From a virus (lineage: Duplodnaviria > Heunggongvirae > Uroviricota > Caudoviricetes), in IMG/VR virus record IMGVR_UViG_2718218136_000006: a stretch of 25,778 bases of DNA; one strand, written 5' to 3'. Position numbers and translations under genes: made by a program. The notes under the pieces are model-generated. The model saw nothing but the letters and a program-made list of their open reading frames with translations. It made no database searches and had not been told where the DNA came from. Shown piece by piece: positions 4,857-5,010 of this stretch (within the stretch, counting starts at the first letter, position 1; the number at the start of each line of letters is the position of its first letter).

Positions 4857-4931
4857 TGGAGCGGGTAGCGGGAATCGAACCCGCATCATCAGCTTGGAAG
4901 GCTGAGGTAATAGCCATTATACGATACCCGC
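4857..4931 (-). tRNA. tRNA-Gly (anticodon UCC)
   Basis: Reverse complement reads GCGGGTATCGTATAATGGCTATTACCTCAGCCTTCCAAGCTGATGATGCGGGTTCGATTCCCGCTACCCGCTCCA: 7-bp acceptor stem, GTTCGATTC T-loop, anticodon loop CTTCCAA, encoded CCA. Confidence 0.85.
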
Positions 4932-4934
4932 ATA

Positions 4935-5010
4935 TGGTGCCGACTACCGGAATCGAACTGGTGACCTACTGATTACAAGTCAGTTGCTCTACCTACTGAG
5001 CTAAGTCGGC
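4935..5010 (-). tRNA. tRNA-Thr (anticodon UGU)
   Basis: Reverse complement reads GCCGACTTAGCTCAGTAGGTAGAGCAACTGACTTGTAATCAGTAGGTCACCAGTTCGATTCCGGTAGTCGGCACCA: cloverleaf with anticodon loop CTTGTAA; 3 bp upstream of tRNA-Gly on the same strand. Confidence 0.85.

Follow-up and report, generated by a model that had tools for sequence, protein, structure and literature searches.

A tRNA-Thr(UGU)-tRNA-Gly(UCC) pair between the Q-like gene and the lysis genes of a cryptic Rac-like prophage: probable phage cargo with a candidate promoter and leader hairpin

Why would a lambdoid prophage carry, between its antiterminator gene and its lysis genes, close copies of two tRNA genes that its host already possesses? 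The question is raised by a 25,778-nt stretch of DNA (IMG/VR record IMGVR_UViG_2718218136_000006, Caudoviricetes; hereafter the window), for which a preliminary description, made from the sequence alone, had proposed two canonical tRNAs 3 bp apart on the late-gene strand. ARAGORN called exactly two tRNA genes in the whole window, tRNA-Gly(tcc) and tRNA-Thr(tgt), and both were recovered with the Rfam model RF00005 at scores (73.8 bits, E = 1e-14, for tRNA-Thr and 65.6 bits, E = 2e-12, for tRNA-Gly) well above its gathering score of 29, placing them among the bacterial elongator tRNAs. Failure of tRNA predictors had been named in advance as grounds for giving up this reading; ARAGORN and Rfam instead call both genes, far beyond chance. 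On the transcribed strand, tRNA-Thr (76 nt with CCA; 4935-5010, minus strand) comes first, followed by the 3-nt spacer TAT, read directly from the sequence (4932-4934, minus strand), and by tRNA-Gly (75 nt with CCA; 4857-4931, minus strand). The terminal CCA is encoded in both genes, and the coordinates, anticodons, spacing and order obtained by ARAGORN and Rfam agree with those first described. A permissive Rfam search of positions 4200-5400 found no third tRNA-like element, so that Thr and Gly stand alone, as had been claimed. A degenerate third tRNA 5' of tRNA-Thr, considered because MAFFT had set the leader against tyrU, was rejected on the same negative search; the leader folds as a plain hairpin, with no cloverleaf.

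The tRNA-Thr is of the thrU type and identical to E. coli K-12 thrU (NC_000913.3) at 76 of 76 positions. The tRNA-Gly is of the glyT type and matches glyT at 73 of 75 positions; its two differences, C6 to U and G67 to A, pair with each other and are one compensatory change of the acceptor stem, from C6-G67 to U6-A67. A comparison with the host genes for compensatory stem changes, which the preliminary description had proposed, therefore yields none in tRNA-Thr and one pair in tRNA-Gly. The identity elements for ThrRS are G1-C72, C2-G71, G35 and U36, and those for GlyRS are U73, G1-C72, C2-G71, G3-C70, C35 and C36. Both sets are kept, because tRNA-Thr equals thrU and tRNA-Gly departs from glyT at 6-67 only, outside the GlyRS elements. 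The RefSeq annotation of the identical sequence already lists a tRNA-Thr and a tRNA-Gly; the pair is already known, and it is a common type of phage cargo.

The window corresponds, at 100% identity, to a chromosomal segment of E. coli EC12, EC15, CH4797 and others, two additional IS10 copies being the sole differences. In EC12 this segment is a Rac-like prophage that adjoins ttcA and is bounded by intR/ttcA. It comprises intR-xisR, ralR, recET, kilR, sieB, ydaSTUV-type replication genes, a Dcm methylase and a nin-like region, then the Q-like gene, the two tRNAs and a holin-YdfR-lysozyme-Rz series, beyond which lie trkG and host genes. The EC12 annotation lists no terminase, head or tail genes in the Rac-like prophage region, and the prophage is on this account cryptic; in the window, the integrase gene intR is also split by IS10. 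The two IS10 copies, each of 1329 bp and in the same orientation, lie at 8088-9416, where the 3' end of a gene for an ATP-binding protein is cut off, and at 23641-24969, where intR is interrupted. Different 9-bp target duplications accompany the two copies (CGCTTTGCA and CGCTTTACC), indicating independent insertions, and each copy contains a match to RNA-OUT (9302-9371 and 24855-24924). Among the complete E. coli genomes of the collection, none carries both insertions, the top coverage being 89%. The Rfam search also identified a full-length RalA antitoxin sRNA (22706-22884, minus strand, 220.6 bits); Rac prophages typically carry RalR/RalA, a type I toxin-antitoxin system, and ralR is annotated in the matching region of EC12.

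Within this prophage the pair lies, as originally placed, between a Q-like gene and the lysis genes. The antiterminator gene on one side (5364-5906, minus strand) belongs to the DUF1133 family (Pfam, E = 5e-107; also RefSeq); its product matches PHROG 753, "anti-termination protein Q-like" (E = 4e-79), and barely passes the cutoff for Pfam Phage_antitermQ (26.7 bits against 26). On the other side, in the direction of transcription, the first gene of the lysis cassette encodes a class II (P21 S-type) holin (3864-4079, minus strand; Pfam Phage_holin_2_1, E = 4e-34; RefSeq), followed by genes for a YdfR-like protein, a lysozyme and Rz, all on the minus strand. With the Q-like gene, tRNAs and holin gene on the same strand inside a Rac-like prophage, the locus belongs to the lambdoid Q-to-lysis tRNA cassettes. 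About 780 bp between tRNA-Gly and the start of the holin gene (4080-4856) hold no recognisable gene; the sole late-strand ORF of at least 50 aa in this interval, of 51 aa (4602-4757), has no Pfam or PHROG match.

The statement that lambdoid phages carry tRNAs in the interval from Q to S is borne out by the published record for SfI, Sf6, ST64T, PS3 and P21 (PMC3636060) and for the Stx2f phage phi467 (PMC5189129). In the former five, a tRNA-Thr(UGU), with or without a tRNA-Asn, is found downstream of Q; the anticodon and the position past Q are those of the window, whereas the partner is Asn(GUU) rather than Gly(UCC) (PMC3636060). The tRNA of phage 21 has an altered, shorter anticodon stem (PMC12445682), a change that the window allele lacks. 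The P2-OLD-resistant tRNA-Thr6 and tRNA-Thr21 (PMC12445682) are likewise phage-borne with the anticodon UGU, whereas the anticodon arm of the window gene is of the unaltered host type. The closest counterparts are a Thr-Gly pair mentioned as a landmark in phi467 (PMC5189129; LN997803) and one in the LT-IIb prophage SerU-LTIIb (KU052038); both are fused as Thr-TAT-Gly, are 96.8-98.7% identical to the window pair, and lie on the late strand upstream of lysis genes. In phi467 the Gly allele is the host-type C6-G67, in contrast to U6-A67 in the window, and stx2f lies upstream of the tRNAs. The cassette occurs twice in SerU-LTIIb, once with the Thr anticodon UCU, whereas the window has one copy, with UGU. 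The Ile(CAU)-Arg-Arg cassette of O157-type lambdoid prophages, usually named ileZ-argN-argO, is found at the equivalent place in the genome. Its Ile(CAU) and its unusual second tRNA stand in front of roughly half of the Thr-Gly cassettes, but the window has neither, holding Thr and Gly only. The Arg(UCU) that is the third tRNA of such a cassette in the PPompW prophage was also considered as the backbone of the window tRNA-Thr, and was ruled out at 53/76 identity and with a different acceptor stem. The tRNA cluster of T4-like phages, too, contains closely packed Thr(UGU) and Gly(UCC), but with only about 85% identity, in another order, with other partners, and in the context of a virulent phage.

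The fused pair is widespread but phylogenetically confined. Of 5426 complete E. coli genomes, 876 contain the full length of a 62-nt probe that spans the Thr-TAT-Gly junction, while a half-match to thrU occurs once in nearly all of the 5426, and a pattern scan of IMG/VR located the junction in at least 120 stretches. Deposited phages with the pair, at 96.8-99.4% identity, are vB_EcoS-683R6, vB_EcoM-606R7, vB_EcoS-689R5, PhiR47_1, phi467 and SerU-LTIIb, and in vB_EcoS-683R6, vB_EcoM-606R7, PhiR47_1 and phi467 the identity is 98-99%. In GTDB, with one genome per species, the junction was found only in E. coli/Shigella, E. albertii, E. ruysiae, Citrobacter braakii and Enterobacter hormaechei, and in one further contig, of 423 bp and low coverage, which is probably contamination; with this contig set aside, the species representatives that carry the junction are all Enterobacteriaceae.

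We compared 128 collected copies of the junction, of which 124 have the spacer TAT. The form seen in the window, with Thr and Gly only, accounts for 53 copies, and about 60 have a four-tRNA form in which Thr-Gly follows two further tRNAs, the first of Ile type with the anticodon CAU and the second unusual. The Ile(CAU) tRNA matches the first tRNA of the PPompW prophage cassette at 75 of 76 positions. The 80-nt "spacer" between Ile(CAU) and Thr in these cassettes is itself a tRNA-like gene (3109-3188 in loci L005-L007; 2594-2669 in L129), with the anticodon loop CCUUUAA, in which C replaces the normally invariant U33; depending on the tool, it is called Lys(UUU), called Arg(UCU), or left unannotated.

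Several unrelated families can be distinguished among the sequences that flank the 128 copies, while the tRNAs are nearly invariant. Substitutions in Thr are mainly in loops, at D-loop positions 16 and 20, and the commonest change in Gly is at pair 6-67 (C-G in 68 copies, U-A in 52, U-G in four, C-A in one), with a second compensated pair in the T stem; a caveat is that the pattern used for the search prescribed the 3' third of Thr and the opening 8 nt of Gly. Read from the sequences, these substitutions point to structure being under purifying selection in the phage lineage. The anticodon is changed on a thrU backbone in three of the 128 copies, to UUU in two and to UCU in one. The UCU gene, in SerU-LTIIb (L003, 5079-5154), is annotated as tRNA-Arg and also has G24A, A31G and D-loop changes; a UUU gene, in E. 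coli E1739 (L005, 3033-3108), is annotated as tRNA-Lys and has A26G. Both are fused through TAT to Gly. In two Gly copies, in IMG/VR loci among L008-L127, the anticodon loop is 4-5 nt too long, and these copies are probably pseudogenes.

The preliminary description had supposed that the tRNAs are expressed with the late genes. Upstream of tRNA-Thr, however, there is a candidate sigma-70-type promoter (5074-5101, minus strand), with a -35 element TTGCGA at 5101-5096, a 16-nt spacer and a -10 element TATCAT at 5079-5074, from which transcription is predicted to start at ~5066-5067. A consensus scan scores it at 9/12, which is not significant alone, and the region has no surplus of promoter-like sites relative to shuffled sequence. 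The Thr-Gly-only form nevertheless has, in each of its 25 distinct upstream sequences, a promoter of the pattern TTGnnn-16-TAnnAT that ends 6-8 nt 5' of the leader hairpin; these sequences represent at least six diverged groups with diverged surroundings. In the four-tRNA form, the alignment reads as having a comparable TTGCAx-17-TATTAT element 9 nt 5' of the Ile tRNA.

Directly 5' of tRNA-Thr, both the MFE and the centroid fold predict a leader hairpin, GGUUCUGAGGGG...CCCCUGAAGAACC (5014-5066, minus strand). Its outer arms, GGUUC/GAACC, are invariant, as is a tandem G.A/A.G mismatch; the sixth pair is C-G, U-A or U-G, the inner stem is G/C-rich, and the apical part is unrelated between groups. 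The consensus GGUUCYGA...YGARGAACC is also found in L003, L004, L010, L090, L096, L097 and other loci, and the outer arms occur in 50 of 138 copies (26 distinct leaders), with unrelated interiors. The hairpin has no match in Rfam. Pairing reaches 89.8%, against 87.6% in shuffles, and 19 of 500 shuffles reach the observed pairing and 32 of 500 the covariation score; because this covariation support is modest, we regard the leader as a conserved inverted repeat or hairpin rather than a proven RNA structure.

Since the promoter and leader hairpin are kept in every diverged two-tRNA relative, the cassette is probably self-transcribed rather than dependent on Q alone. We infer that it would form an autonomous transcription unit inside the late operon, with Q-dependent read-through as a second route. 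Expression with the late genes is thus retained as one proposed route, while the position-conserved upstream promoter suggests that the tRNAs also have transcription of their own.

Several other candidate signals surround the cassette. A terminator scan found an intrinsic-terminator-like hairpin with a 13-pair stem and U-tract between the Q-like gene and the tRNAs (5253-5284, minus strand), which from its position could be a terminator of the tR' type. By eye, a possible late promoter, TTGATT-17-TTTAAT, overlaps the stop codon of the Q-like gene (5339-5367, minus strand); the terminator-like hairpin (5284-5253) lies ~55 nt further on, a layout that resembles lambda PR'-tR'. Between tRNA-Gly and the holin gene, the same kind of scan detected a strong intrinsic-terminator-like site, AACCGCC..GGCGGTT followed by T7 (4473-4492, minus strand), and a weaker one (4757-4736, minus strand). 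A terminator-like hairpin on the plus strand (4419-4442) faces the strong site (4492-4473) on the minus strand.

What the pair could supply depends on the codons that it reads. We counted codons with one simple ORF caller applied to all sets, a crude measure in which the host set comprises ~19,000 codons and the 120 cassette-bearing phage loci 217,000. Per 1000 codons, ACA occurs 6.2 times in the host, 19.6 times in the window prophage genes, 13.8 times in the cassette-bearing loci and 13.0 times in lambda; the corresponding values for GGA are 6.9, 15.6, 13.6 and 12.7. The difference between window and host has a Fisher p of 1e-16 for ACA and 2e-8 for GGA, and lambdoid phage and prophage genes use both codons two to three times as often as host genes do. 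Ranked by the phage/host ratio, ACA is 6th and GGA 8th of 61 codons, with AGG, AGA, ATA, CGG and CGA ahead. AGG, AGA and ATA are read by the Arg(UCU) and Ile(CAU) of the larger forms; across the family, the tRNAs carried thus follow the rare codons that are most enriched. The codon-usage comparison that the preliminary description had called for is therefore positive for the window prophage genes as regards enrichment, but tRNA-less lambda is equally enriched in ACA and GGA. Codon demand accordingly fails to separate carriers of the cassette from non-carriers, and this control weakens the specificity of a codon-compensation explanation; as lambda has no tRNA genes, such tRNAs are also dispensable for the lambdoid life cycle. 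An ACA argument has been published for the Thr(UGU) tRNA of phage SfI, with 17.3% in SfI against 7.1% in the host (PMC3636060).

We consider it probable that the pair is tRNA cargo of a lambdoid (Rac-like) phage lineage and adds to the dosage of two tRNAs for which the host has one gene each, both functions being predicted. glyT is the only known UCC tRNA gene of the host. thrU is the sole UGU tRNA gene of MG1655 (PMC12445682). The phage copy of thrU would read ACA and other ACN codons, and that of glyT GGA and GGG. The cassette would be organized compactly, as a sigma-70 promoter, a ~53-nt leader hairpin, tRNA-Thr, 3 nt and tRNA-Gly; RNase P and 3' exonucleases would release both tRNAs from a dimeric precursor, and during lytic growth read-through by the Q-modified late transcript would add to their expression. 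More gene dosage for these single-gene tRNAs would be the likeliest selective function in the phage lineage. In the window itself such a benefit to the phage cannot operate, because the terminase, head and tail genes are missing and the integrase gene is split, and without structural late genes there is little late translation to support. With its structural genes and integrase lost, the window prophage may now simply provide the host with a second copy of thrU and glyT. Transcription from the cassette promoter, processing, aminoacylation and any effect on fitness are predictions from sequence.

Three other explanations can be weighed against phage cargo. In the host, thrU and glyT belong to one operon, thrU-tyrU-glyT-thrT-tufB, and the pair might be a piece of this operon, transferred by aberrant excision or rearrangement, rather than established cargo. 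The mature sequences (100% and 97% identical), the anticodons UGU and UCC and the encoded CCA are all compatible with such a transfer, and a precise deletion of tyrU could have left the T-AT of the spacer, as T follows thrU and AT precedes glyT in the host; this match is, however, a 3-nt coincidence with a chance expectation of ~6%. Whereas 8 nt, tyrU and 116 nt separate thrU from glyT in the host, 3 nt do so in the window, and the resemblance extends no further than the mature tRNAs. Neither 5' of thrU nor 3' of glyT do the flanks of the window cassette show homology to the host operon: the leader, tyrU, the 116-nt spacer, the thrU trailer and thrT are all missing. The Gly allele is U6-A67, and the prophage is located at ttcA and not beside the thrU locus. 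The junction moreover recurs in many different lambdoid phages, with at most six matching places per genome, host thrU included. The lack of such homology refutes the recent capture of an operon fragment, and we regard an operon fragment of any kind as highly improbable. The earlier preference for phage cargo over a host operon fragment is upheld by the Rac-like prophage, the Q-to-lysis interval and the lack of homologous flanks. The ultimate origin is still probably an operon of the thrU/glyT type, because the mature sequences resemble two members of one host operon; an ancient derivation from such an operon is plausible and compatible with phage cargo. It is also conceivable, if on the doubtful side, that the pair in the window is a neutral passenger, a redundant duplicate of host genes that persists pending further decay of the prophage and has no present function for phage or host. 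The prophage has indeed lost all structural genes and has an interrupted intR, its tRNA-Thr is indistinguishable from the host copy, and lambda manages without such tRNAs at similar codon usage. Against neutrality, both genes are intact in the window and among the matches listed at 100%, and an additional copy of two single-copy tRNA genes is likely to be expressed. The retention of the tRNAs and of the promoter position while the flanks were replaced argues for selection, at least in active phages.

The remaining explanation is defence evasion, in which the phage Thr(UGU), and perhaps Gly, would replace host tRNAs destroyed by tRNA-targeting immunity, chiefly P2-OLD. In lambda-infected cells, killing by OLD, a nuclease of the P2 prophage, is due mainly to excision of the anticodon arm from tRNA-ThrU (PMC12445682, 2025). 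Rescue is confined to phage tRNAs whose anticodon is UGU, and the tRNA-Thr(UGU) of phage 21 is among those that protect; to be resistant, a tRNA needs both a changed CNG motif and a shorter anticodon stem (PMC12445682). The window tRNA-Thr has this anticodon, the tRNA genes of P21 likewise lie downstream of Q (PMC3636060), and four of the 128 Thr alleles are changed at positions 42-43 (UCAUC or UCACC), the kind of change reported to confer resistance; in these alleles the CNG motif of the 3' strand is altered and 27-43 and 28-42 are unpaired. The anticodon arm in the window, in contrast, is ACUGA-CUUGUAA-UCAGU, that of the sensitive host ThrU, and retains all of the reported determinants of susceptibility (C28-U29-G30, C40-A41-G42, A37 and the full 5-bp anticodon stem). 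Because it is identical to host ThrU, the window allele is predicted to be sensitive to P2-OLD rather than a resistance variant, and host tRNAs-Thr, ThrU among them, protect hardly or not at all (PMC12445682). In tRNA-Gly, too, the anticodon arm is the same as in glyT, and a literature search found no anti-phage defence specific for tRNA-Gly(UCC). Defence evasion is thus an unlikely explanation for the window, and the 42-43 and anticodon variants are leads for its relatives, not features of the window.

A broader and speculative reading, which we do not expect to hold as a whole, would combine a self-promoted module active in lysogens and more than late-gene cargo, a leader hairpin that, with its invariant tandem G.A, is an undescribed functional RNA signal, and a family remodelled by tRNA-targeting immunity of the P2-OLD kind. 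In such a history, the window would represent the ancestral nuclease-sensitive thrU form, and its relatives would have shifted the anticodon on an unchanged backbone (UGU to UCU or UUU) or both altered and shortened the anticodon stem (42-43).

For phage cargo, the reading that we prefer, the window itself matters little: its pair is annotated in RefSeq and occupies a well-known niche for phage tRNAs. The family is of wider consequence. P2-lambda interference rests on the destruction of tRNA-ThrU by P2-OLD, and roughly one complete E. coli genome in six has a copy of thrU in a prophage. Of the prophage alleles, the common one is predicted to be P2-OLD-sensitive, and rare ones have anticodon-stem changes like those reported to confer resistance. 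The U6-A67 Gly allele offers a natural tag by which phage and host tRNA-Gly(UCC) would be separable in tRNA-seq. Finally, a promoter and leader hairpin of its own suggest that the cassette may be expressed independently, which bears on whether prophage tRNAs help lysogens to translate horizontally acquired genes.
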